Shown: piece by piece, positions 3,079 to 64,000 of the stretch
How positions within the stretch are numbered: the stretch's first letter is position 1
Layout: each line of letters opens with the position of its first letter
Notes under the pieces: model-generated
Databases searched by the model: none
What the model saw: only the letters and a program-made list of their open reading frames with translations
What the model was told of the DNA's origin: nothing
NCBI GenBank assembly: GCA_010093745.1
Contig: MU005961.1
Coordinates: 186,001 to 250,000, forward strand
Direction of reading: 5' to 3'
DNA from: Piedraia hortae CBS 480.64
Taxonomy: Eukaryota
Length of the DNA stretch: 64,000 nucleotides
Program-made: the position numbers and the translations under genes

Positions 3079-4404
3079 CTACTGCGCAGGACACTGCACC
3101 CTCTCGGCTCCATGATGCATTTCTTCATCTTCATCGTCGTTCATAGCAGTGGCGCGTGAGCCATCTCTAGCCGCGTCCATTTTCTCGAGCGGGTAATCGT
3201 CTGTGACAGCGTCCGGAGGAGGAATATTCTGGGGCATGCGTGGAGGAAGAACAGACTCGAGTGCCTTGATTTGCTGCTGCGTCATAGGCGTCGGGGCGCC
3301 GTTGGCATCAAGCGGGCCCTGGATGCGCTCGGGGAACTTTACGTCAAAGTGCACGTACATGTTACCGAAGTCGTGGTGACGGTACGACGGCATGCCCTGG
3401 CCGCGGATAACCTTGACCTCGCCTGCGTTTCACGTCAGCGTCTGTTTGCAACCACAGCAGCTCTACTTACCTGGCGAGATGACTTCTCCAGCTTCCAACT
3501 CGACCGTCAGCCACCGGTCGTCGAGGTGCTCAATGTAGATGGCGCCACCCGAGAGGGCGGTCAAGAGATCGATCTCGGCGTGGTAGAATAGGTCATCACC
3601 TTTGCGCTGGAACCGCGGGTGCGGCTTCTGCTCAATCTCAAATTGCACATCACCCGGCTCGACGCCCGGCACCTGGTCTCCCTCTCCTTGCAAGTCGATC
3701 TTGGTCCCACTCTGCACTCCGCGGTCGACGGGGACATGCAACACCTTTCGTTCTATGATGGTCTTTTTGCCACCGCAGTGCTTGCAGCGGTCCTTTTCGC
3801 GAATCGTCTCGCCCTCTCCCTGGCAGTCGGGACACACGGTCTGGAAGCGTTGGATCATGGGACCCATCTGGCGCATCATCGTCTTCGCCCCCTGGCCGTG
3901 GCAGCCGGGACACGTCTTTACTGCACCCTCCTTTCCCCCGCGGCCGTCGCACTTAGGGCATATCACGCTCTTCTGCAGTGCCAGCTTGCTGGTTTTGCCT
4001 TTGTAGATGTCCTCGAGACTGACTTTGTGTACATGGTGAATCGGCCGCGCTTTTTTCGGGCCCGTGTCGCGCATTCCGCCGCCAAACATACCGCCAAACC
4101 CGCCGCCAAATCCACTTCCGAATATATGCGAGAAAAGATCTTCCGCTCCCATGCCGCCACCCATGCCGCCAGCACCTTCTAGACCTTCCTTGCCGAATTG
4201 ATCGTACATCTGACGCTTCTGGGGGTCAGAGAGTACTGAAAAGGCCTCTCCGATCTGCTTGAACTTCTCTTCGGCTTCCTTGGAATGCTGATTCTTGTCA
4301 GGGTGATGCTTCATGGCGAGCTTTCGGTACGCTTTCTTCAGCTGCTCGTCGGTTGCGTCCGGCGCGCAGCCCAATACATCATACAGTTCTGTGTCGCGCA
4401 CCAT
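3079..4404 (-). CDS. YDJ1: Type I Hsp40/DnaJ chaperone (Ydj1/Mas5)
   Basis: J-domain HPD, G/F region, four CxxCxGxG-type zinc motifs, C-terminal CaaX CPAQ. ATG at 4404; 48-nt intron 3423-3470 joins the two ORFs in frame. Confidence 0.96.
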
Positions 4405-10944: not shown

Positions 10945-11609
10945 TAGAAGTCTTCTCCACTGCGTGCACACTTTTGATCACCACTTCAAACTTGAATAAC
11001 ATCACGCACAACCATGGTACATAACTATAGGTTGACTTTTTCGAAAGCGCATGCTCTAAGGATTCGTATGGTTCAAGTTTTGTATGTTCACGTTCCTTCC
11101 TGCGATCGGTATACTGCAATTCATGTCAAATGGCACCATTGCAGAGATGTCGCCAGTACAGCACCAGCTAACATCTTTCACATACTTTGCGCTCATGAAC
11201 GTACTATTTGTGGTCTCGCGTTTCCAGTGCACTTTGTTTCAGGCATGCGCAAGGTCGGGTAGCTGTGTTCTGTCCGTTCAGAGTTGGCGGGTCGAATTCG
11301 CGACGTCGCTTTCAGTTTTGAATCGACCTAACACAACGTATAATTGCCGCAAACAGTCGTGAGCGGTCTCATACGATAGCTTGCATTGTACAGACTCGAA
11401 TGGTATGCAATTTGCATGGTTAATGTTCTGTTTTGCTTGTTATCTATTCGGGTTTGTTTCGACCCCTAATGGCCCTAGAAACCCGCAAGATTTCGAGCAA
11501 TCGCACTTTGAATACTATCATAAAAAGCAGTGGAATATAGATTTAAAGGTATGGACTTTCGCCTAAATCAATCATCAAGTGTTTGAGACGTTCAGGTGTC
11601 GCGCTACAT
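10945..11609. repeat. Left arm of a 665-bp inverted repeat
   Basis: Reverse complement of 13821-14485. Mirrored ORFs translate identically and paired coordinates sum to 25430. Confidence 0.97.
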
Positions 11610-12603
11610 CGCTCATCCGAACTGTAGATGGAAAGCACCCGCTGGCAATCAGGGCTTCCACTACCAAACACTGCGCAGCCGCACCTTGAGGCTGAGGACA
11701 AAACTACAACGGGCAGGATTTTTACTGCAAAAGATTGACCGACCTCCTCTGATTGATCGGCGCTTCACAGCCGGATGTCGGTTAGATCCTACGAACGGAG
11801 AATCCAAAGAAGAGGCCGCAGCACACTTTGTGTCGTGGCTCTCCACCCTACCCTCGTCAGATATCGTGGCGCTCAGCGACGGTTCACAGACGGGCAAATG
11901 GGACATTGGCTATGGCTACGTCCTCCAACAAGGCGGTCAGTACGTGGGGATGGGCAAGGCGAGGATCGACCCCTGCTCAGCCGTGTTTGACGCCGAGGCA
12001 GTAGGTGCGTGGCGCGCCCTAGAGCGGGCTGTTGCACACCGGGAAAGGACAGGACAGGGAAGGATATGGATCTGTGTCGACAACACGGCCGTCATCTGGT
12101 GTTTACGTGCGGATGCCTCTATCTCGTCCCACTGGACGTTTCAAGCGCTTCACCAAGTTGCCGATGCGCACGACATCGAAATCAAGTGGTGTCCAGGACA
12201 TTGCGACGTCCAGGGCAACGAGACCGCAGACGAACTAGCAAAGGACGGCAGCAAGGAAGCGACCCTCTCTGACCTTTACAAGACCTGGCGACTCCCGTAT
12301 GCGGTGCGGGAGAACGCCGAACTCCACCTGGGACGCCCGATCCTTCAGCGCCTTCTGGCGCTGAGAACGGGACACGGAGACTTCGCGGCATACCATCGCC
12401 GCTTCCATCACGACAACGCAGTTCTCAACTGCAGGTGCGGCCGACCAAAGGCCCCTGAGCACTTGGTGCATTGCCCGCGCGTTGTTCGCCAGTGGCGAGT
12501 CTGGCCCTGGTTCTGGGATGGACCGAGGCGGATGCTGGATTTCGAAGGGTGGAAGAAGTATCTTGCCGACCTGGTTAGAAGGCCCACAGACGAGGTGGGT
12601 TAA
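11610..12603 (+). pseudogene. LINE ORF2 RNase H and C-terminal zinc-knuckle fragment
   Basis: SDGS, VFDAEAVGA, VDNTA, KWCPGHCDVQGNETADELAK (RNase H D-E-D-D residues present); GHGDFAAYHRRF; CRCG...HLVHCP. Confidence 0.9.
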
Positions 12604-13197
12604 GGTGTATTCATCCCGTTGGCGACGGATCGCGTCGGACTCGCCAAAGGTGGAGACGAGGGCCCCCTCCAGGGCGCTCCATTGTTGCAGCAACTGGGGC
12701 TTGGAAGGAAGTGTCCTTACGAACCACTCACGGGCTACTCCCCGGAGTTGGTTGGCTGTATACGCGCACTTAATCCTCGTATCCCCTAAGTCACTATCGA
12801 GAAGCTCCTTCAATTTGACATGCGTCAGGAACGCAGGCAGCGTGCCGGCTTTGCCAGCGAACGTCTGCCAATCCGACGCGTCAACCTCATAGCTCGTCTG
12901 GGGCTTGGTGTCGATCTCCATCTTAGGCCCAAGCGAATCCAACGGTGGATGGTCGTCGTCTGATTCGGAATATTGTTCGTCCGACGGACAAGTGTCGGGC
13001 CAGAACCCGGCGGCGGTGCGTTCCTCGGTTGGAGTATGCGGAGGGTGGCGAGAGAGAGCGAGCGCCCGTCCCGATGGCGGCGTATGTGTAGGGCGGGCCG
13101 TCCTACCTGAAGAGCTCATACTTGCCGCGTTTGTTGCCAACACAGGCTTCTTTCGAGAAATCTGTCCGCGCGGCTGAGCAAAATCTATGGGAAACAC
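12600..13197 (-). pseudogene. LTR-retrotransposon gag-like fragment
   Basis: YTANQLRGVAREWF...WSALEGALVSTFG resembles the Ty3/gypsy gag capsid pattern (L.G.A..W, W..F...L...F). Truncated against the LINE fragment. Confidence 0.6.
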
Positions 13198-13357
13198 AGG
13201 CCGCAGGCTATCCTCGCAATGCGGAGGAGGACCGTGGCTGGATAACAGCCCTTTGAGGCTCGAGATGCTTGCTAAGGAACCTAACGTATGTAGGTAGACC
13301 TAGTTTAGCACGCCCCCATGCCCTTCGGGAGGTCGCGAATGGCCGTTAGCGGTCATT

Positions 13358-13675
13358 TTGCCCGGCGTAAAACATCAAAAAAAAAAAAAAAAGGCTCGGG
13401 AGTTGGAGCGGAAGGAACAAGAGAAAGCGCAGAGGGCGCGTGAAAGGGCGGAGGCCAAGCCGTTGAAGGCTGCGGAGATTTTGCGGAAGCGACAGGAGCG
13501 ACAAGCCGCTAAAGAGGCCCGTATGGCAGCAAAGGCACGAAAGAAGGCCGAAGTCGCAGCGAGGAAATCCGCCGCTCAACACAAGGACGATGACGACTAT
13601 GTTGAAGAGTAGCAACTCAGGAGGTCCACGAGGCAGGCGATCGGTAAGAACAACTAGATTTGTATCAGTAAGTAG
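13358..13675 (+). pseudogene. C-terminal K/R/E/A-rich coiled-coil tail of a pogo/Fot1-like transposase
   Basis: ARELERKEQEKAQRARERAEAK...RQAAKEARMAAKARKKAE, followed in another frame by GRRSVRTTRF. It points toward the arm whose inner end resembles the sequence downstream of the pogo relic at 18.15 kb. Confidence 0.55.
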
Positions 13676-13820
13676 GCAGTATTGATGTATTGCTGCTATC
13701 CGTGTAGCGCACAAGCAGTCGGACGTGGCGCTGGCGTGAGTTGCTGGACGTGGGGGAACCGCCCCGCGTTCCCCAGCGAAAGCCGGCTCGAAACCTCTCA
13801 AACTCGCCGACTTTCGAGCA

Positions 13821-14485
13821 ATGTAGCGCGACACCTGAACGTCTCAAACACTTGATGATTGATTTAGGCGAAAGTCCATACCTTTAAATCTATATTCCAC
13901 TGCTTTTTATGATAGTATTCAAAGTGCGATTGCTCGAAATCTTGCGGGTTTCTAGGGCCATTAGGGGTCGAAACAAACCCGAATAGATAACAAGCAAAAC
14001 AGAACATTAACCATGCAAATTGCATACCATTCGAGTCTGTACAATGCAAGCTATCGTATGAGACCGCTCACGACTGTTTGCGGCAATTATACGTTGTGTT
14101 AGGTCGATTCAAAACTGAAAGCGACGTCGCGAATTCGACCCGCCAACTCTGAACGGACAGAACACAGCTACCCGACCTTGCGCATGCCTGAAACAAAGTG
14201 CACTGGAAACGCGAGACCACAAATAGTACGTTCATGAGCGCAAAGTATGTGAAAGATGTTAGCTGGTGCTGTACTGGCGACATCTCTGCAATGGTGCCAT
14301 TTGACATGAATTGCAGTATACCGATCGCAGGAAGGAACGTGAACATACAAAACTTGAACCATACGAATCCTTAGAGCATGCGCTTTCGAAAAAGTCAACC
14401 TATAGTTATGTACCATGGTTGTGCGTGATGTTATTCAAGTTTGAAGTGGTGATCAAAAGTGTGCACGCAGTGGAGAAGACTTCTA
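13821..14485. repeat. Right arm of the 665-bp inverted repeat
   Basis: Reverse complement of 10945-11609; ends ...GGAGAAGACTTCTA. Confidence 0.97.
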
Positions 14486-15179
14486 ACACAGGCTGTCAAG
14501 GCTACCTTGCCAAGCTAATGATGTGGCCAGACAGTTTCTGGCTTGTCTAATATTACGGAGTTCTACCTTGAGGTTGGTCCTCGCTTCTGATCATCGTGTT
14601 ATGTCTTGGGACACAGCAAGCTGCCTAAACTTCCCGGGCAGCGGTGAGGAAGGGGAAAGGGTTAGTATCAAGCCCATACGAGGCTGGACGTGCTGGTTAG
14701 GTAAGTCAAAAGACCGCGAATAGTTCTTCCTTTTAGCATGCACATATCCCGCTCGAGAGGGTGTGGTCGGTTATTCGCGGCCGAGATATCACGGCGAAGA
14801 AGTTATTCGAAATTATGGGAGAATCTCGAACTTTGACCGCCGTGAAAATAGTGAATTTCTCATTTTGGCCTCCGACGACATATCCCACAATTAGAGACGG
14901 CAAACCCTTTGCTTGGAGCGTGGACCATTTCCAGTGCACCGGATAACTGCTAAGGTGGGTCTGGATCAAAGCCCGTTCGGTCTTTCCCGCCCTTTGGAAG
15001 CTGTTCGCCTTCCTGTAGTCGCTCTTGTTTGTTTGCTCGTTTGTCCTGTGCCCAATGACGTTGTGAACCGGTCGCGAATAACCAACCGCGAGTCATGTCT
15101 ATCATAGGACATTCACAACGTATGATAGCCAGCAAATCTATGCCGGTAAAGTTATTTCGAATTCCCCGCTGCGTGCCTT

Positions 15180-15330
15180 CCATACCGATTGTGGAGTGTC
15201 CCAGTCTCTTCATGGCCATGGTAGAAGAGCATTTACCGTGTGGCGGTCTCAGAGCATGCGCCAACACCATCTGCAGCAAAAGCCCATAGATGGGGCAACT
15301 CTGGGAAACTTGCGTTGGACGTAGGAACAG
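15180..15330 (-). mobile_element. Possible highly degraded hAT dimerisation-domain remnant
   Basis: Frameshifted pieces QRKFPRVA / AFAADGVG / RLGHSTIGM loosely resemble fungal hAT C-termini. Confidence 0.25.
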
Positions 15331-18144
15331 GCCATGTCTCGAAGAGGAGGTTCCCCTCGCAGGGCGGTATAAGATCTGCCCCTCGCTGTACTCATCGCTT
15401 AGCAGTCTCGTCTCGGGAAAACTGGGCCCTCGCCCCGGGCGACTGGCAGCATCGCACACCCGTTGAGATTTCTTGGCTCTGCCAAGCGCTGTAGTGTAGA
15501 CGGGCTCGTAGCCGGCACCGCGTAATTACGGGTGGAAGTTGTCGGTGATTATTCGGTTGCGCATGGCCTGACGAATGAAACCCGTAGATGCATATCACTC
15601 TTTATCTCCACGGCCTAAAGATAGCGTGCATCATAAGCTATTGGTAAGACTGTGAAGAAGGCCTTTGTTATTGAATTCGCTTGTGGTACCAGGAGCGTTC
15701 CTTGACTTAAAAAATAGACAACTTTTGCCTTGCAAGCTAATTCGGTTGCCCGAAAGTCTATTCTGCGCCTTCCACGAACTTCTGCACATGTGATTCACTG
15801 TTGCCCACATCAAAGATGGAAGGAACCTCTCAGGGTCGTTCAAGCTTCCCTTTTTCCAACACTCGCACGTAGCTCACGTCCAATTCCCGTCATCTCGTTG
15901 GACAATAGAGACAATCGAAATCAAACACAACCTCGCATATCCAGAGGATGCAGGGGTCTCTTGAAGCCATCCATTGGTCGATCACAGACTCTCGACAACG
16001 AAACATGGTCACTGGCTCGCTCACGATGCACCGTGAGTTGTGCAACTCGTCAGAATACGCTCTGCTGGGTTTTAATCTAGTCCTTGCTGAAGCATTAAGG
16101 CGGCGAGGATGTGGGCTCCGATGGAAACTCATGATGCTAGAACGAAGCATGTTGAAACATCTGAGGATAGCGACATCAATGCCATGACATAGGTCAAATC
16201 GTCCCCCAACAAGACCGTTACCAAAGAGAAGAATTGTTTAGGTTACAAGCCGCAGCCTGCTAAATTGTGTGTAGTCGTATTGAGGATACACGCCTCCTAT
16301 TGTGGCCCCTTCAACAAGCTGATGATGCCGAATCTCAAAATTGGATCTGGCTCTCAATCAATTAAGGCTTTTACGGCCCGGGAATGCTCCCTGAAGAGCG
16401 TGATGCATAATGTGTGTGCTACTCGTACATGTGACGCAATGGCGAAGTGGGGGCCCCGGAATATTTCCGTGAAGTAGAATGCCAAGGCTGCACGGTGCCT
16501 CCGCACTTGTCAACCAAGAATGTTTTTTCAGAAACTTTTTTTACTACCCACCCACTCAGAGCGGAACTCTCGCGTGGATTGCTATTACTGATGGTACCAC
16601 CTAAATTGTAACTCAGCCTGTCAGACACCTAACTGAGGAAGATAGGGCCCCGGACTTCTCGAGGGTTTTGCCTCACCAAGAATGTTTCCCTTGGGACGTG
16701 GTCATGTAACAGGATGTTGTAAGGGCGAATGCGGTTCAGGTCGTACCGAAACGTGGGGCTGTCTTGGCACACACAAGTCTACCCCTTACTTCCTCTCCCA
16801 ATAGGCAGAGGATTACTCACCCGCCTTTCACTCTTCACCTCCGAATCCTTCAGAGTCACACACCATGGCAGAAAAGGCAAAACCTCCACACACTCAACCA
16901 TCGCACGCATTCAACCAAGAGAAAGGGAGAAGAGGAAAAGGAAGGTGCTGGAGGAGAGCGGGTCAAAGGAGGCAATGGAGCTGCGTAGAGGGAGGAGAAA
17001 AGGACGGAGATGAAGAAGGCGGGGGAGGATAATGCTCCGGCGCTGTCGATCCCGTAGGCGACACGCGGCGCCTACAGTAAACAACGGATAGAAGCCAGCC
17101 TAGAGCATGTGAATAACCTTCTCACTGCCGGCGGCTAAAGCCCAAGGATCGCAAGTCTTCTGGGGGGCTCAAAGGGGGTCACTCTAGAAGACTTGAAAAG
17201 GATCCCCCAAAGTCTCGCCTACAGGAGAGGGTTCTCACACTTGAGCAGATATACTGCTTTAAAGCTTTCACCACGGCCGAGCCCAAGCGGATCGACTTAT
17301 TGGTCCAGCATGGTGGCTGTTTCGGCGAATGGGCATCCATATTGAGGCGAGAGGTCGGCAATACGTCAGCTGTTGATACGTCCAATGATGAACTGAAGGA
17401 CGCGTCACGGGCTCTTCTGCGAAAAGATTATGGACGGTGATAAGCGCCGCGACTAAGATGAGGGAGGCCCCGACCCAAAAAAATGATTTGGGGGATCCAT
17501 CGCTGGGCAGATTGCTGTCCTCACTGCCATAACAGCGTGAGGGGTCTAATTGCTGGCAAACAAGCTTCGCAAATGATAGAAAACATACACTCAGATCTTA
17601 ACTCTTGAGAAGCGCAAGCGGACAAGCACAGCTTACCGCACCACTCATCCGCTGCATCACGGGAAACAAAGTTAACGAGCTGCAAGCACAGGATCCATGT
17701 ATCAGTTGCAGGGACAGGAAGCAGGCTAGCACGGGCCGTCACCTTCCCCATGTTGGGTCTGGCCCCGTGCCGCACTTTGAAGAAACATTTACGCGGCAGA
17801 TATTGTCATCTCAATTGGCAGCTGTACAGGGCACAGAGGGGTGGGAAACAATGCCTTCAGGGAACGACGATGGCATCTTGACATCAATGATGCATGTACA
17901 GTATGTAGAACGCATACTTCTTCGATTCAAAGTTTACAGGAACGTTTCTCATTGGCTTCGAATTGACACCACACAGTACATGATCATGTATGAGCAGGAA
18001 ACTGGCAAAGAAAATAATTGAATGCTTTGCGTTGCCAATCTGCACTCAAGTTTCGTTTCCAAGTTAGACAATCGTCGAACTCCCTCTAATGGGCACAAGA
18101 ATTTACATAAAACCGGTGGGGTACGAATAGCCTTTCTGTCTGAG

Positions 18145-35455: not shown

Positions 35456-35944
35456 CTACAGCGTCAACTCAAGAAACACAGTGTTTTTGAGAGGCGTCGG
35501 ATAGTAAGCGGGGATCTCGACAAAGCCAAGAGACCTGTACAACGCCAGGGCTGAAGTCATTGTATCCAACGTGTCTAGACGCATGGCACGATAGCCCAGA
35601 GTTTTAGCCTCGTCTATAACTGCGTTTGCAAGCGCACGCCCAATGCCCTGACCGCGGCCATTTGGAAGTACGTAGAGCCGCTTCATCTCGCAAAGTTCGC
35701 CCGCAGAATCTACTGACGACAATGGTCTCAAACACACGCATCCAAGAGTTTCACTATTAGACAATGCGCGAGCTAGCAACAAGGCACCCATTGGGGGAGA
35801 GTATTTTCCAGGCAAAGTGTCCAGTTCGTTAGCAAAGCCCTGGAAAGAGAGGTCAATGTTTAGCCATTCGGCGTAGGAGATAAAGAGCGACTTGATGGCT
35901 TGCAAGTCCTGGATGCCGGAAACTGGCTTTATGACAAAGGACAT
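35456..35944 (-). CDS. GNAT-family acetyltransferase
   Basis: CEMKRLYV..GRGQGIG (acetyl-CoA motif A), MRLDTL, ALYRSLGF. Confidence 0.9.
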   Translation of the reverse strand: MSFVIKPVSGIQDLQAIKSLFISYAEWLNIDLSFQGFANELDTLPGKYSPPMGALLLARALSNSETLGCVCLRPLSSVDSAGELCEMKRLYVLPNGRGQGIGRALANAVIDEAKTLGYRAMRLDTLDTMTSALALYRSLGFVEIPAYYPTPLKNTVFLELTL

Positions 35945-36215
35945 GAGTAAAGTTCGTGTGATGCCGAATATGTGCCCGAAGGCCCCCCTTGTGATAAGGC
36001 ACAGTTGAAGTCTGGGTCAATTTTCGTTATTTACGTCAATGAACGTTTCGGAAGTGGCTAGCGCGTCCCTGTGGCTCAACCCCAGTGACTCACTAACCTC
36101 ACTCTTCTTACCCACCACACACCACACGCGCACTCAGTGGCGACACTCGCACTCCACAAACGCGCTTACCAATACCATTTGGCAAATAAATACAATCACT
36201 CAGCACTCTGACAGC

Positions 36216-37603
36216 ATGGCGAGAGGTTCCCGCCCTAACCGAGCTACGCATGACCGCGATGGCGATGTCAAGATGGGCTCCGCCTCCGTTTTGTCTGGCC
36301 GACGCGCCAACGGAATCAGCAAGAATCAAAACGTACAGTCTAGCACCAGGGTTGCCCGCCCCCGCGTAGAAGCTCCAGGTCGTCGCGAACTCATGCCCCG
36401 CCGTCCCGGTCGTGAAGACATTCGTATGAGGGAGGCTCCTTCAGGGCCTAGGGAGAACAGAGAGATGCTGGTAGAGCTGAAGATCACGGGCTGGGAGAAA
36501 AGCAAGGCGTCAGGAGATGCCGACGGCGGAGCCGCGTCGCTGATCAAGTGGATGGAAAAACGGGCGGGAATCAAGATGGGCAGTCGGGCCCGGAGCCTCA
36601 AGGTGAAAAAGGTATGTCGTCGCTGCATGGCAGGTCGATGACGCCTTCACCGGCTCGCGCAATTCCGGTCCGCTTTCGTTTGCAGCCAATCTCAGAACGA
36701 CGACCGTGAGCACAAGGGCCGCGTGAACGCGTCGGCCTGTCCGGGCCGATTTGAAATACTAACGGATGGCAGTCTCGCATATCAGGACCGGATGAGATGG
36801 TTATCAAAGTTGCTTCGTCCGATGCAAACGCCTTTGCTCGGCTGGACCGCTACCAGTGGGCCGGCGTTGTAGTCCGTATTGCACGCCTGGATGCTCCCGC
36901 ATCTTCGATCGTTCAGACGGCCGCACAGGCAGACGCCGAGAACACTAAACGCATGCTTCTCAGCGTGCTCGAGCGGCGATATGAATTCAAGAGCAAGTTT
37001 CTCGATCTCAGCGCTCTGCGTGCAGACGAAGAACTGCAGAAGCAAGACATTTTCGCCAAAACGTCGACCACGCACAAGTTCTTCCCCGCCATGATGCGTG
37101 TGCTCGAACTGTCGTTTGACTCCAAGACGGCGCGCGATGAAGCCGTGTCCAGCGTGTCCCTGGCCAACAACGATTTGACCGACGTGTCTCTGGTGACCAG
37201 CTTGTCACAAACGCTGCCAAAACTGGTGAATCTGGATCTGTCCGGCAACAAGTTCGAAAACATCTCGGCCTTGGGCAACTGGCGTCGCTGCTTTCCCGAT
37301 CTTTCTCACCTCATTGTGACCGGTAACCCGATGGAAAGCAAGGATCCGGAGTACTGGAAGACAGCCATGAATTGGTGGCCTAAGCTCCGCTTTCTGAACG
37401 GACTTCCCGTGCGTGACGATCAAGGCATGAGCTTAGCAGTCATGCCCTATGAACTCATGGCCCAGCTTTCGGTGAAGACGAATATGGTGCCCAGTTATTC
37501 TCGTCTTTGCCTGGAACAGACCAACTGGGACCTTGAGAAGGCACTCGACGCGTTCCACAATGTCAAGCACACACTACCGGGCGAAGCATTCACAAGCACT
37601 TGA
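36216..37603 (+). CDS. MEX67: mRNA export factor Mex67/NXF1, short form (about 408 aa)
   Basis: Arg/Gly-rich N-terminus; LRR block (KFLDLSAL, KFFPAMM, SLANNDL, NLDLSGNKF, GNP); C-terminal TAP-C/UBA (KTNM..YSRLCLEQTNWDLEKAL..F...LPGEAF). Intron 36612-36772. Confidence 0.88.
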
Positions 37604-38105
37604 TGGAACAAATATGGGCAAGGGATTACACGGATGATGGTGAAGGGCGTGGGAAGTTTAGTCAATCAACCATCTTTGTGGTCTGTTTCACCCTTTGTAC
37701 TCGTAACGAAATTGATGTGTCGAACGCTTGAGAGCTGATATCCTTTGTTGCCTTTAGTGTACCTGTGGACTCGACAGAGTCAACTAGATTTTCGTCTTGT
37801 AAATAGCCCAGTCTGTTCTCAAATGTTGGTACCTATACTTGAAATAATGTACATATGAAAAAGTTCCAAGTTCGTCACCACAGTAAAGAGAAAAGATTGA
37901 AAAGGTCAATGATTTTCTACAGCCTAATGCTACAACCGATAACAGCAGCGTATAAAACCGCCAGTGTAGTATCGTCTCTTGGAAAACGGCAATTCATTCG
38001 CTTCGTAACGTCGTCGTGTAGCCCATACTCCCTTCGCCATGTGCCAGTCCGTCGACCTTTGTGCAGAAAAGGAAACACTGTCGTTAACTGCCCCATACTC
38101 CCCAA

Positions 38106-39845
38106 TTATCTAATTACACCCCATTCTCCGACAATACCTCTAGGGAGATTCTTATCCTTTTTCTGGAAGCAGTCCCAGAAGCGGAGCGTCTCGTCCCCGG
38201 CACCGGTTACGATGGTTGTCCCATCGGGGCTCATGGAGAGGTAAAGGACACGGTACGTGTGCCCCGTGAGTGAGGCTACCGGGGTCATGCTAGGATACTT
38301 CCAGATATTGATAGCATGCTGGGAGTAACCGTGGGTTGAGACGATTTCGGGCGTTAGGGTGCTGAATAGGAGGTTGCAGACTTGGCTTCCTGTGTCGTGG
38401 GAACGGATTAGGTGAGGGTTCAGGGAGGAAGGAGAGTCGGCCGAGTTGCGATTACCGGAGAAGTCGGATTGAGGCAGCGGGTCGAGGCTCCAGCCGAGAC
38501 GAGAGTCGGGCGCTGACGCCGCTCCGCGCGCCGTGGAAATCGTATTCCAGAACTTGATACAGCGGTCAGCCGTGCCCCCGCCCGATGCGAGGAGACCGCG
38601 CTGTCGAGGGCTCCAGGCAATGGCCTTGACGGCGGCGCGGTGACCACCTTCGTTCTCGCCCCACTTGTGCAGCCAGCGATCGTCCATGCGGTCCCAGATA
38701 AAGATCTTGTTGTCGTTGCCGCCAGAAGCAAGCTGGTCCGTGTCGGCGTTCCACTTGAGACCGCAAACCTCTTGGCGGTGGCCCGCCAGCCGGCGGACAA
38801 ATTGCGGGGCGATGCGCACGTCGCGATGTAGAATGGAGCGGTCGCGCGAGCCCGTTGACAGAACGTGCGCGTTCCACGCCAAGCTGCTGACGCGCGCCGA
38901 GTGTCCCGTCATGGTGCGGAGACGTCGCTCGGTTACGGTGTCATATAATATCAGCAGTCCGCGCGCGGTGCCAACGGCGAGGTGGTGACCGCGTTGAATC
39001 CAGCTGACGCTCGTCACATTGTCGTTGTCTTCCAGCGTGCAGAGCAGGTTGACAGCGCCCGACTCACGGCCCCAAAGGTACACCGACGCCCCTAGCCCGA
39101 CGGCCAGCACATCGTTTGGACCCCAGTCGACGAGGTTGAGGTAAAAGTCGTTGGCAAGATCCGGAGCGTCCAGAACCTTGTACGGCGCCTTACTAACCTG
39201 GCGCGGCGTCTTGCGCGGCGACAGTAACATAGCCTGCGAGCTGAGCTTGACCGGCGACAGGCTGTACAGCTCCGAACGCACATTGACATTGGGCCCGCGG
39301 TCGCTGCGGGAGATGGATCGCGGCGTTAGCGATGGCGTCGGGTTGGCCGCGTACGAAAAGAGGTTCTTGTTCGGTGTCGAAGGGGTCAGAGCTGCCCCGT
39401 GTGGCGAGCTGCGAACGGGCGGAGTCCTGTTTCGTGTTCCCTCATTTGTCCGGAACGCCTGAGGGATCTCGCCATCGAACATTTCCGAGCGCAAAATGGT
39501 GGAGAGCATGCGGTCACCATCGCCGCGCTTACCTGGCTTCGCCGGAGAAGCATCATCGTGTAGCAGGCTATAGCCCTGCGCGAGGTCACGTCCAGTACGG
39601 TTCGGGATGAAGCGATCGCCGCCGCGCTGCAAACGCTGCCGTTTCCTGCTGGGGCTTCCGCCCGGCGTGGACGTCCGCGACACTCCTACTTGCTGCGGTA
39701 GTCGCCCAGCAATGGTCGCGTTGTTATCTCCTATGCGCTCGCTGAGCGATCGCTTCCCAGTTACCGGCGGCGGAGTTTTGCTGCGTTCGGCGGGCATGTC
39801 GTTGTTGTCCTGGTCTCGCAGCCGGGCGCTGGAGCGCCGTGACAT
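38106..39845 (-). CDS. CDH1: APC/C activator, Cdh1/Fizzy-related WD40 protein
   Basis: C-box DRFIPNR, PYKVLDAP.L..DFYLNLVDW, GGGTADRCIKFWN, C-terminal IR tail. Confidence 0.92.
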   Translation of the reverse strand: MSRRSSARLRDQDNNDMPAERSKTPPPVTGKRSLSERIGDNNATIAGRLPQQVGVSRTSTPGGSPSRKRQRLQRGGDRFIPNRTGRDLAQGYSLLHDDASPAKPGKRGDGDRMLSTILRSEMFDGEIPQAFRTNEGTRNRTPPVRSSPHGAALTPSTPNKNLFSYAANPTPSLTPRSISRSDRGPNVNVRSELYSLSPVKLSSQAMLLSPRKTPRQVSKAPYKVLDAPDLANDFYLNLVDWGPNDVLAVGLGASVYLWGRESGAVNLLCTLEDNDNVTSVSWIQRGHHLAVGTARGLLILYDTVTERRLRTMTGHSARVSSLAWNAHVLSTGSRDRSILHRDVRIAPQFVRRLAGHRQEVCGLKWNADTDQLASGGNDNKIFIWDRMDDRWLHKWGENEGGHRAAVKAIAWSPRQRGLLASGGGTADRCIKFWNTISTARGAASAPDSRLGWSLDPLPQSDFSGNRNSADSPSSLNPHLIRSHDTGSQVCNLLFSTLTPEIVSTHGYSQHAINIWKYPSMTPVASLTGHTYRVLYLSMSPDGTTIVTGAGDETLRFWDCFQKKDKNLPRGIVGEWGVIR

Positions 39846-52743: not shown

Positions 52744-52824
52744 GCCTCTGTGGTCTAGTGGTATGACGTGTCCTTCACAAGATGAGTACGGACAAGGTCC
52801 CGGGTTCGATACCCGGCGGGGGTA
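52744..52824 (+). tRNA. tRNA-Val(CAC) with a 9-nt intron (52780-52788)
   Basis: Acceptor GCCTCTG/CGGGGGT, A-box TGGTCTAGTGG, anticodon stem TGTCC/GGACA with loop TT-CAC-A|C, T-arm CCGGG-TTCGATA-CCCGG, discriminator A. Confidence 0.93.
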
Positions 52825-52828
52825 CACC

Positions 52829-62847: not shown

Positions 62848-63414
62848 GGAGCCAGCAGTTTCCGTAGCCAGGTCCATCGCTGTAAACTAAAAGCGTGCAA
62901 ATTGTTGCCATTGGTTCCCAACTAGTTATATCATCATCTTTGATCACTACATGGCTACGTGGTAGACTAAGACGAAGACAGCCCATCTGAAATCGATTCA
63001 TGACATCATGGGCTTATAGCTAGGGTTCACCTTTGGGGAGCCTTTTAGGGTTTGTTAACATCGGCCCGCCAAGACCGTTTGGGGGGAACGGCGGGTTCCG
63101 CGGCGTAAAACTCTCGCACTCCCCCATCAACAACACCACACACGCATACCCATCCCCAACCCACCTGTCTCCCCTCATCTTCGCGTATCGCTCCTTTGCT
63201 CACTCCTTCATCGTCGCTTCGTTGTCATTTCCCATACACGCCTTCTGTTTGCTGCAGCGTAGCGGTTGTTTGATTTTTGCACACCAACGTCCAGAAAGGT
63301 AAGTCTATTGTGGCGTATGCTTCGTAGTGCGCGCTGACAGCCCCGTGAGAGCTTTCATCTTCCAAAGCTTTCTCCGTTTACAACCGACTCCCCACGTATA
63401 TATCTCAAGACATC

Positions 63415-64000
63415 ATGGCGACCGAGGGTTCTGCCTATCCTATGCCGGGGGTCAACGGTCATTCAACACATAATACCGAGCTCGAAAAGCAGCATAGCTA
63501 CTCGCAGTCGACTGCACAGAAGCCTCAGGTCTCCAAGAACGAGGTTGGCTGGTACTTTGTCGAGCAATTCTACACAACCCTCAGTCGCAGCCCGGATAGG
63601 CTCTACCTCTTCTACTCTAAGCAGTCCCAGTTCGTGTCTGGTGAAGAAGCAGAAAAGGTCCAAGTTTGCGTTGGCCAGCGCGCCATCAACGATCGCATTA
63701 AGGAACTCGACCTCCACGACTGCAAGGTCCGTGTGACCAATGTAGACTGCCAGGGTTCCGGCTCCAACATTGTCATTCAAGTCATTGGCGAGATGTCGAA
63801 CCGTTCTTTGCCGCACAAGAAATTCACGCAGACGTTTGTCTTGGCTGAGCAGGTCAATGGCTACTTTGTGCTGAACGACATCTTTCGGTTCCTGGTTGAC
63901 GAGGAGGATGAGGAGCCTGTGGAAGCTGGAGCGGCATCCGAGCCCGCAGTGACGCAGGAAGCGGTGCGGGAGGTGCCTGAGGAGCAGCCGACGACGCAGG
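63415..64000 (+). CDS. NTF2-domain stress-granule protein (G3BP/Nxt3/Bre5-like), runs off the window
   Basis: EVGWYFVEQFYTTL...IVIQVIGEMSN...KFTQTFVLAEQ.NGYFVLNDIFRFL. Probable 5'UTR intron from 63299. Confidence 0.9.
   Translation, partial: MATEGSAYPMPGVNGHSTHNTELEKQHSYSQSTAQKPQVSKNEVGWYFVEQFYTTLSRSPDRLYLFYSKQSQFVSGEEAEKVQVCVGQRAINDRIKELDLHDCKVRVTNVDCQGSGSNIVIQVIGEMSNRSLPHKKFTQTFVLAEQVNGYFVLNDIFRFLVDEEDEEPVEAGAASEPAVTQEAVREVPEEQPTTQ

Follow-up and report, generated by a model that had tools for sequence, protein, structure and literature searches.

In fungi and animals, the Mex67-Mtr2 heterodimer (NXF1-NXT1) is treated as the universal receptor for bulk mRNA export, and the NTF2-like domain (NTF2L) of Mex67 is held to be indispensable. 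Partner binding, a pocket for phenylalanine-glycine (FG) repeats, docking of TREX-2 and Mlp1, and a ribosome-binding surface all reside in this one domain. Here, we focus on a plus-strand gene in a 64,000-nucleotide stretch of fungal nuclear DNA (contig MU005961.1, positions 186,001 to 250,000; the whole stretch is referred to as the window) which, judged by its descent and by two of its domains, counts as a Mex67 and yet lacks the defining feature of the family, the NTF2-like domain itself.

Reduced members of this family are known. In animals, NXF3 and NXF5 are domain-reduced and retain the NTF2-like domain, a germline NXF paralogue has reportedly been described in Drosophila, and in S. pombe the mex67 gene is non-essential. 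Such reduced paralogues (NXF3, NXF5 and the trypanosome TbMex67L) belong to the same family as the window protein, have each lost one module and are presumed to have altered functions. However, those described have lost the UBA domain or N-terminal parts while retaining the NTF2-like domain and Mtr2/NXT1 binding, whereas the window protein has lost the opposite module. All three trypanosome Mex67 paralogues are reported to retain NTF2, TbMex67L being without UBA (PMC12774637). For budding yeast, it is reported that the middle (NTF2-like) domain binds Mtr2 and is needed for association with the pore, and that the C domain is important, though not essential (PMC2175290). The NTF2L and UBA domains are described as holding one FG-binding site each, with NTF2L-p15 also binding RNA (PMC4330393), and the NTF2L pocket is described as the docking place of Sac3N and Mlp1 (PMC4509546). 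In A. nidulans, single and double nulls of mexA and nxtA are viable with growth defects (PMC3192866, text and Table 1).

The window protein has the N-terminal arm, RRM-like, leucine-rich repeat (LRR) and TAP-C/UBA parts in common with canonical Mex67 (S. cerevisiae; C. thermophilum, 4wp6, 4xm4 and 4wp2; A. nidulans MexA), and its gene has the same intron and the same neighbouring GNAT gene as full-length Dothideomycete Mex67. Unlike the window protein, canonical Mex67 has an NTF2-like domain (approximately residues 260-543 in yeast), for which binding to Mtr2/NXT1, FG repeats, Sac3N/Mlp1 and pre-ribosomes is reported (PMC2175290, PMC4509546, PMC4330393). The question of what a receptor can do without NTF2L and p15 has been posed with an engineered 2xUBA form of TAP/NXF1 (Braun et al. 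2002, cited in PMC4330393). This construct has two FG sites and is credited with about 50% of the export of RNA carrying the constitutive transport element (CTE) (PMC4330393), whereas the window protein is natural and has one UBA domain. In the full-text literature, we found no description of a Mex67 or NXF protein without an NTF2-like domain.

Gene structure and domain content

The gene consists of two exons (Table 1), and its product of 408 residues agrees with the earlier note on this DNA, which had given a protein of about that length with one open frame from the LRR cap to TAP-C. The first exon encodes an Arg-rich N-terminal arm with a DRDGD motif and, from about 36468, the first half of the RRM-like domain; the end of this exon, LVELKITGWEKSKASGDADGGAASLIKWMEK...KVKK, agrees with the consensus of full-length relatives in the RRM-like region. 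The domain is split by the intron, both halves align with the RRM region of the relatives, and a beta-alpha-beta arrangement is modelled at residues 2-38 of exon 2.

Two public runs, X1 and X2, contain the Mex67 stretch. The type label of X2 is a guess only and no run is recorded as RNA, and X2 was treated as RNA from its splice joint and from the intergenic stretches that it leaves bare: it gives no cover in the gap between Mex67 and the GNAT gene (35964-36151) nor around 37844-37937. One X2 contig joins 36609 to 36771 and skips 161 nucleotides (GT..AG, cut +2), which is exactly the predicted Mex67 intron, and the X2 contigs over the gene (36169-36611 and 36771-37808) have 0 differences and 0 gaps. 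Because the spliced joint is present, X2 contains RNA of this gene, and the gene is transcribed and spliced. An unspliced X2 contig (36582-36800) lies over the intron alongside the spliced one; the unspliced frame hits a stop at 36639-36641, leaving an N-terminal fragment of 141 residues.

In the translation of exon 2, Pfam finds LRR_NXF1-5 (PF24048) at residues 65-209 (2.7e-9, 37.2 bits against a cutoff of 30.5) and TAP_C (PF03943) at residues 227-273 (6.5e-16, 58.1 bits against a cutoff of 21.3), and it finds no NTF2 family at E<=1, PF22602 (the NTF2-like middle domain) included. The two hits are 17 residues apart, and from the LRR cap, WWPKLRFLNGLPVR, to TAP_C there is a linker, DDQGMSLAVMPY, of 12 residues, the number that the earlier note had estimated. 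Compared with nine named full-length Dothideomycete Mex67 proteins, the window protein is empty in about 240 alignment columns, which correspond to the NTF2-like domain and two linkers. Against yeast Mex67 (8hbn), query residues 27-221 align with yeast 74-259 and residues 221-274 with yeast 544-597, so that the equivalent of yeast 260-543 is gone. Cap residues W201, P203, L205, R206, N209, V213 and R214 are invariant in the alignment with the nine relatives, and TAP-C residues C246, L247, W252, F261, A272 and F273 are invariant or nearly so among 36 sequences. The TAP-C part matches 4wp2 (3.9e-6) and 2khh (5.6e-4) in the Protein Data Bank (PDB), as well as 6exz and 2jp7. For exon 2, AlphaFold2 with the 36-sequence alignment gives a model that has a mean predicted local distance difference test score (pLDDT) of 92.3 and a predicted template modelling score (pTM) of 0.80, with pLDDT of 88-92 in the junction blocks and three helices at residues 225-267 (TAP-C). 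By Foldseek, its LRR superimposes on that of Chaetomium thermophilum Mex67 (4wp6) with a template modelling (TM) score by target of 0.92 and a root-mean-square deviation of 2.2 A.

A remnant of NTF2L was sought in the whole 64-kb window, where matches stayed at chance level (best tblastn E 0.006, at 12137-12359; best profile E 0.11). The tblastn match was rejected as a remnant, as it sits inside an RNase H-like retroelement open reading frame (ORF). The earlier note had claimed that the entire NTF2-like domain is absent from a stripped-down Mex67, and had asked for Pfam and AlphaFold domain analysis. The structural part of this claim is borne out, with LRR and TAP_C found, a confident model, and the domain that binds Mtr2/NXT1 missing from the protein and without a trace elsewhere in the window, so that the reading given in the earlier note is supported in part.

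A deletion in the assembly or a faulty gene model would give the same picture, and the single X1 contig over 35400-38200 (0 differences) does not speak to this independently, being possibly from the source of the assembly. X2, on the other hand, is from another study, and one of its contigs (36771-37808) covers the LRR/TAP-C joint with 0 differences, 0 gaps and no joint, which provides cover across 37415-37450, the earlier note having asked for read coverage across 37400-37460. As this second-study contig crosses the joint without a gap, an assembly deletion is rejected. Apart from the possible origin of X1, no support was found for an artefact, and with a spliced exon joint in X2 and the same junction in a Piedraia hortae protein from a separate assembly, we regard it as extremely improbable.

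Table 1. Coordinates of the Mex67 gene, its encoded domains and the adjoining gene in the window
Feature	Position	Strand	Basis
5' untranslated part of Mex67 transcript	36169..36215	+	start of first X2 RNA contig at 36169
Exon 1 coding part, 132 codons	36216..36611	+	relatives' exon 1 matches 36366-36638 (tblastn)
Intron, 161 nt, GT..AG	36612..36772	+	X2 joint 36609/36771; tactaac branch site near 36758
Exon 2 coding part, 276 codons and TGA (37601-37603)	36773..37603	+	RRM-like end, LRR, 12-residue linker, TAP-C
NXF-type leucine-rich repeat domain	36965..37399	+	PF24048; PDB 4wp6 5.5e-33; Foldseek 4wp6
LRR C-terminal cap, exon-2 residues 201-214	37373..37414	+	sequence/translation
Junction linker, 12 residues, exon-2 residues 215-226	37415..37450	+	site of about 240 missing residues
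TAP-C / UBA-like domain, NWD motif intact (37523-37531)	37451..37591	+	PF03943; PDB 4wp2, 2khh
3' untranslated part of Mex67 transcript	37604..37808	+	X2 contig 36771-37808 ends there
Head-to-head GNAT acetyltransferase gene	35456..35944	-	Pfam Acetyltransf_1 9.8e-16

Descent of the locus and distribution of the short form

For comparison with close relatives, exon 2 was used as query against a 90%-cluster protein database, which returned 75 further proteins, 7 of them similar in length and 68 longer; the search was word-limited and missed many known Dothideomycete proteomes. The named relatives (Teratosphaeriaceae, Mycosphaerellaceae, Cladosporium, Myriangium and Elsinoe) are 33-58% identical, and PF22602 (NXF_NTF2) is present in all 75 other relatives. 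Metagenome contigs were scanned as well and gave 72 related loci, which were probed with Friedmanniomyces Mex67 (P0014). In 66 of these the LRR runs into NTF2L-coding sequence in the same frame, and 60 of the 66 reach TAP-C; of the remaining six, five end at the contig edge before the NTF2L point and one (L072) has no match at 1e-5. The LRR is joined directly to TAP-C in none of the 72 loci. The earlier note had named a short form normal across the class as something that would undo its claim. These comparisons indicate instead that the short architecture is not the norm of the Dothideomycetes, even though it recurs elsewhere in fungi.

The locus itself carries marks of its origin. The start codons of the GNAT and Mex67 genes are 271 bp apart, head-to-head, and a GNAT gene (44-56% identical) lies upstream of full-length Mex67 in the same orientation in 8 of the 72 loci, all of them Cladosporium-like (85-89% identical to C. 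fusiforme Mex67). The intron occupies the same residue (P0014 146/147) in about 20 relatives' loci, and in the relatives LRR, NTF2L and TAP-C are encoded in one exon. In trees, the window protein is nested in the Dothideomycete Mex67 clade with starred values of 100 (FastTree) and 97 (IQ-TREE). The neighbour, the common intron position and the tree position all point to descent from Mex67. Together with the one-exon layout, the neighbour and the intron argue for an ancestral Mex67 locus from which about 240 codons were deleted internally and in frame, and on this sequence evidence we take the short gene to be the parental Mex67 locus. Two other routes to a short gene were ruled out, retrocopying by the retained ancestral intron and exon loss by the layout of the relatives, whose three domains lie within one exon.

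Downstream, synteny breaks just after the Mex67 stop (window 37604-39845 compared with 11525-15976 of the Cladosporium-like locus L012). In the Cladosporium-like loci (L012), SF3B1 follows on the same strand, whereas in the window a Cdc20/Fizzy WD40 gene follows at 38106-39845 on the minus strand. Three more distant loci have a DnaJ gene 9 kb from Mex67 that matches window 3466-4299 at 75%, a weak sign of loose synteny. Loose synteny is typical of the class.

The nearest short form is a 317-residue protein (P0080), annotated as 'hypothetical protein K470DRAFT_236618 [Piedraia hortae CBS 480.64]' and in UniRef as 'TAP-C domain-containing protein', on whose locus-tag prefix no paper was found in the full-text literature. 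It is 43% identical to the window exon 2 by BLASTP, and the alignment is gapless over the final LRR repeats, the junction and the entry into TAP-C (LNGLPVRDDQGMSLAVMPYELMAQL in the window exon 2, LNGLPLRGQDGKFLAMPPHEILAFF in K470DRAFT_236618). The two proteins have the same LRR-to-TAP-C junction and the same Pfam content and are sisters in the tree. They differ in that K470DRAFT_236618 has no Arg-rich N-terminal arm, has NWN where the window protein has NWD, scores lower for TAP_C (31 bits against 58) and sits on a much longer branch (2.32 against 1.03). In a quick IQ-TREE analysis (LG+C20) of 54 rows, made up of 50 of 76 Dothideomycete rows (26 near-duplicates dropped) and 4 outgroup rows, the two pair with a value of 88 in the Shimodaira-Hasegawa-like approximate likelihood ratio test (SH-aLRT) within a 28-row Teratosphaeriaceae-like clade (91). 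This placement agrees with a report that P. hortae groups with Acidomyces in a subclade of Capnodiales (PMC7082219). Because the junction is common to both proteins without a gap and both pair in the tree, the NTF2L deletion appears to be inherited from their common ancestor.

What remained of the protein seems to have been kept under selection, although it changed faster. Over the columns occupied by the window protein, Teratosphaeriaceae pairs are 55-73% identical, and the identity of the window protein is 47-52% with all Mycosphaerellales and 43% with Myriangium. The nine full-length proteins have 76 invariant columns, of which the window protein retains 67; of the nine that it has lost, two fall in the misaligned junction. 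From the root of the 28-row clade, the path is 1.03 to the window protein and 2.32 to the P. hortae protein, whereas 24 full-length rows have a median of 0.47 (range 0.21-0.69) when a further, long full-length row (P0093, 1.73) is excluded; evolution is therefore about two times faster in the window protein and about five times faster in that of P. hortae. By path in FastTree, the full-length row nearest to the window protein is P0051. The open frame of 408 codons, the retained invariant columns and the retained NWD suggest that the remnant Mex67 is under purifying selection.

In a wider comparison, 1.84 billion 50%-cluster representatives were scanned with HMMER, which gave 391 relatives, and the best 150 of these 391, to which the following counts refer, were taken further. 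Of these, 148 new representatives were classed with profiles cut from the alignment of the window protein and the nine full-length relatives: 93 are full, 20 are fragments and 35 have LRR and TAP-C 0-110 residues apart with no NTF2L, an architecture with which the window protein conforms (LRR_NXF1-5 followed by TAP_C, no NTF2). Pfam agrees in 34 of the 35 listed short forms (LRR_NXF1-5 and TAP_C, no NTF2 family at E<=0.01) and finds the LRR only in P0189, although some short entries could be faulty gene models, the library giving no names or context. In a 215-row FastTree made without the NTF2L columns (P0168 omitted for its short LRR), the 35 short rows, namely the window protein and 34 others, need at least 21 changes, at least 13 of them forced by starred branches. 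On this tree, the NTF2L-less forms are not one clade and have several independent origins, and the junction sequences vary among the short-form groups.

Two clades of this tree are entirely short, one of seven rows (P0156, P0165, P0197, P0208, P0211, P0213 and P0217; 100, starred) and one of three (P0127, P0191 and P0205; 99, starred). Both have proteins of 318-456 residues and long stems. In these fungal lineages too, the short architecture seems to be stably inherited. A search of the Protein Atlas with NTF2 families skipped gave no cluster of at least 50 members with LRR and TAP_C only; its best feature matches (0.84 or less) serve as leads only.

Other features of the window

Three further features were recorded in the window. 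A perfect inverted repeat of 670 nucleotides (10945-11614 and 13816-14485, 100% complementary) flanks 2201 nucleotides. The flanked part holds an RNase H-like ORF at 11587-12600 (Pfam RNase_H, 3.3e-7) and, on the opposite strand, a 354-residue ORF with no Pfam match. This stretch is either a retroelement fragment in an inverted duplication or a palindromic mis-assembly. Towards the end of the window, a plus-strand ORF (63349-63999, running past the end) encodes a complete NTF2 domain (PF02136, 4.9e-25) and, after it, an acidic tract. The ORF was considered as Mtr2/NXT1 or as a detached Mex67 domain, 26 kb off, and rejected, being G3BP/Bre5-like and giving no match to the Mex67-NTF2L profile. 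A tRNA gene lies at 52744-52825 on the plus strand (Rfam, 49 bits); ARAGORN reports it as 'tRNA-???' of 82 nucleotides with the anticodon not named, and it perhaps contains an intron.

Explanations for the short gene and what they imply

The explanation that we prefer, with a confidence somewhat above even, is that the short gene represents the parental Mex67, which carries a deletion by inheritance, still functions and is probably the only copy. In the ancestral Mex67 of a Dothideomycete near Teratosphaeriaceae and Piedraiaceae, one in-frame deletion of about 240 codons in the large second exon would have removed the entire NTF2-like domain, together with the linkers on both sides, and joined the LRR cap to the first TAP-C/UBA helix. 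This deletion would predate the divergence of the window organism and P. hortae, and purifying selection since then would have retained a remnant that evolves faster than full-length Mex67. The short protein could load on messenger ribonucleoproteins (mRNPs) via its N-terminal arm, RRM-like part and LRR, the parts for binding cargo and adaptors that were retained. Its UBA-like domain, which in other species binds FG nucleoporins and Hpr1, may still contact FG repeats or Hpr1, with the NWD motif and the core kept. No heterodimer with Mtr2/NXT1 would be formed, and the FG pocket of NTF2L, the docking site for Sac3N/Mlp1 and the ribosome-binding platform would be gone. The result might be a weak, partner-free export factor with one FG site, for which several copies per mRNP might compensate; an adaptor or modulator is an alternative role. 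The loss of Mtr2/NXT1 binding and the residual function are deduced from domain content, and it is from the same content that the protein may be proposed to act as an Mtr2-independent export receptor.

A genome could tolerate having the short Mex67 alone, given that at least one filamentous ascomycete, A. nidulans, can do without Mex67 and NXT1. That the short gene is the only Mex67 of its genome is slightly the likelier case. P. hortae contributes none of the 68 longer matches, even though the database includes its proteome (weak evidence, given how many Dothideomycete proteomes that search missed), and P. hortae is reported to have the lowest gene count of 101 Dothideomycetes (PMC7082219).

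Several points weigh against this explanation. The sole-copy claim rests on the position of the locus and a word-limited protein search. The GNAT adjacency is found only in Cladosporium-like loci, and two Teratosphaeriaceae-like loci (L003 and L016) have no GNAT gene despite sufficient upstream flank. The pairing with P. hortae has an SH-aLRT value of 88 without a star and involves two long-branched rows. A redundant duplicate would be expected to evolve faster, as the short clade does. Finally, budding yeast is reported to need the middle domain and Mtr2 binding for the pores, its C domain being dispensable (PMC2175290), and human TAP to need two FG sites, its 2xUBA form giving about half of CTE export (PMC4330393). 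Because of these two requirements, a protein with one UBA is predicted to be a poor translocator.

Alternatively, the short gene could be a diverging extra copy beside a full-length Mex67 elsewhere in the genome; freed from the export job, this copy would have lost its NTF2-like domain and would now be specialised or regulatory. By analogy with animal NXF and trypanosome Mex67 paralogues, it may compete for adaptors, RNA or UBA ligands or serve a subset of transcripts. The long branches of the short clade fit with this, as do the recurrence of LRR and TAP-C without NTF2L among the fungal representatives (35 of 148) and listed short forms whose neighbours in the tree are full-length (e.g., P0200/P0193 and P0084/P0094), which would be the pattern of repeated truncated duplicates. 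The full-length P0030, P0034 and P0051, from large assemblies, could belong to the window organism, and a paralogue with altered domains is documented in TbMex67L, described as without UBA (PMC12774637). On the other side, the short gene holds the ancestral GNAT-Mex67 locus and the ancestral intron and would thus be the parental copy, which usually keeps the function. The missing full-length P. hortae protein counts weakly in the same direction, and the P. hortae gene set is reported as the most reduced of the class (PMC7082219). We consider an extra copy possible, with a probability well short of even.

Another possibility would be a decaying relic, in which Mex67 became dispensable in the lineage and the gene, though still transcribed, is drifting to loss. 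The faster evolution of the short clade could be read in this way, as could the state of the P. hortae copy with its missing arm, weaker TAP_C and altered NWD motif, and Mex67 is reported as not essential in A. nidulans (PMC3192866). However, two lineages with only 43% identity both keep an open frame, most invariant columns are retained in the window protein, its model is confident throughout, and a correctly spliced transcript is present, so that decay appears improbable.

Beyond the inherited and functioning parental Mex67 that we prefer, a wider picture can be drawn only tentatively, and we hold it to be somewhat less probable than its opposite. A free-living or commensal Dothideomycete lineage, comprising the window organism and P. 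hortae, would live with a single NTF2L-less Mex67 and no heterodimer, and would also be without the FG site of NTF2L and the docking of Sac3N/Mlp1. Such partner-free 'LRR-UBA mini-Mex67' proteins, having arisen often in fungi, would constitute an unrecognised functional class. If this is true, the lineage would be a natural knock-out of a module that is essential in budding yeast. The orthologous gene has lost exactly the NTF2L module and yet is expressed and has long been conserved, which suggests that this lineage may be able to do without part of the export machinery. As a sole copy, it would show how far the export receptor can be cut down and would point to back-up routes, fitting with the viability of the A. 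nidulans nulls. If it is a second copy, it would be the first domain-reduced fungal Mex67 paralogue found in the literature surveyed, missing the module that the described paralogues keep. Either way, the gene offers a ready-made construct for learning what LRR and UBA do alone.

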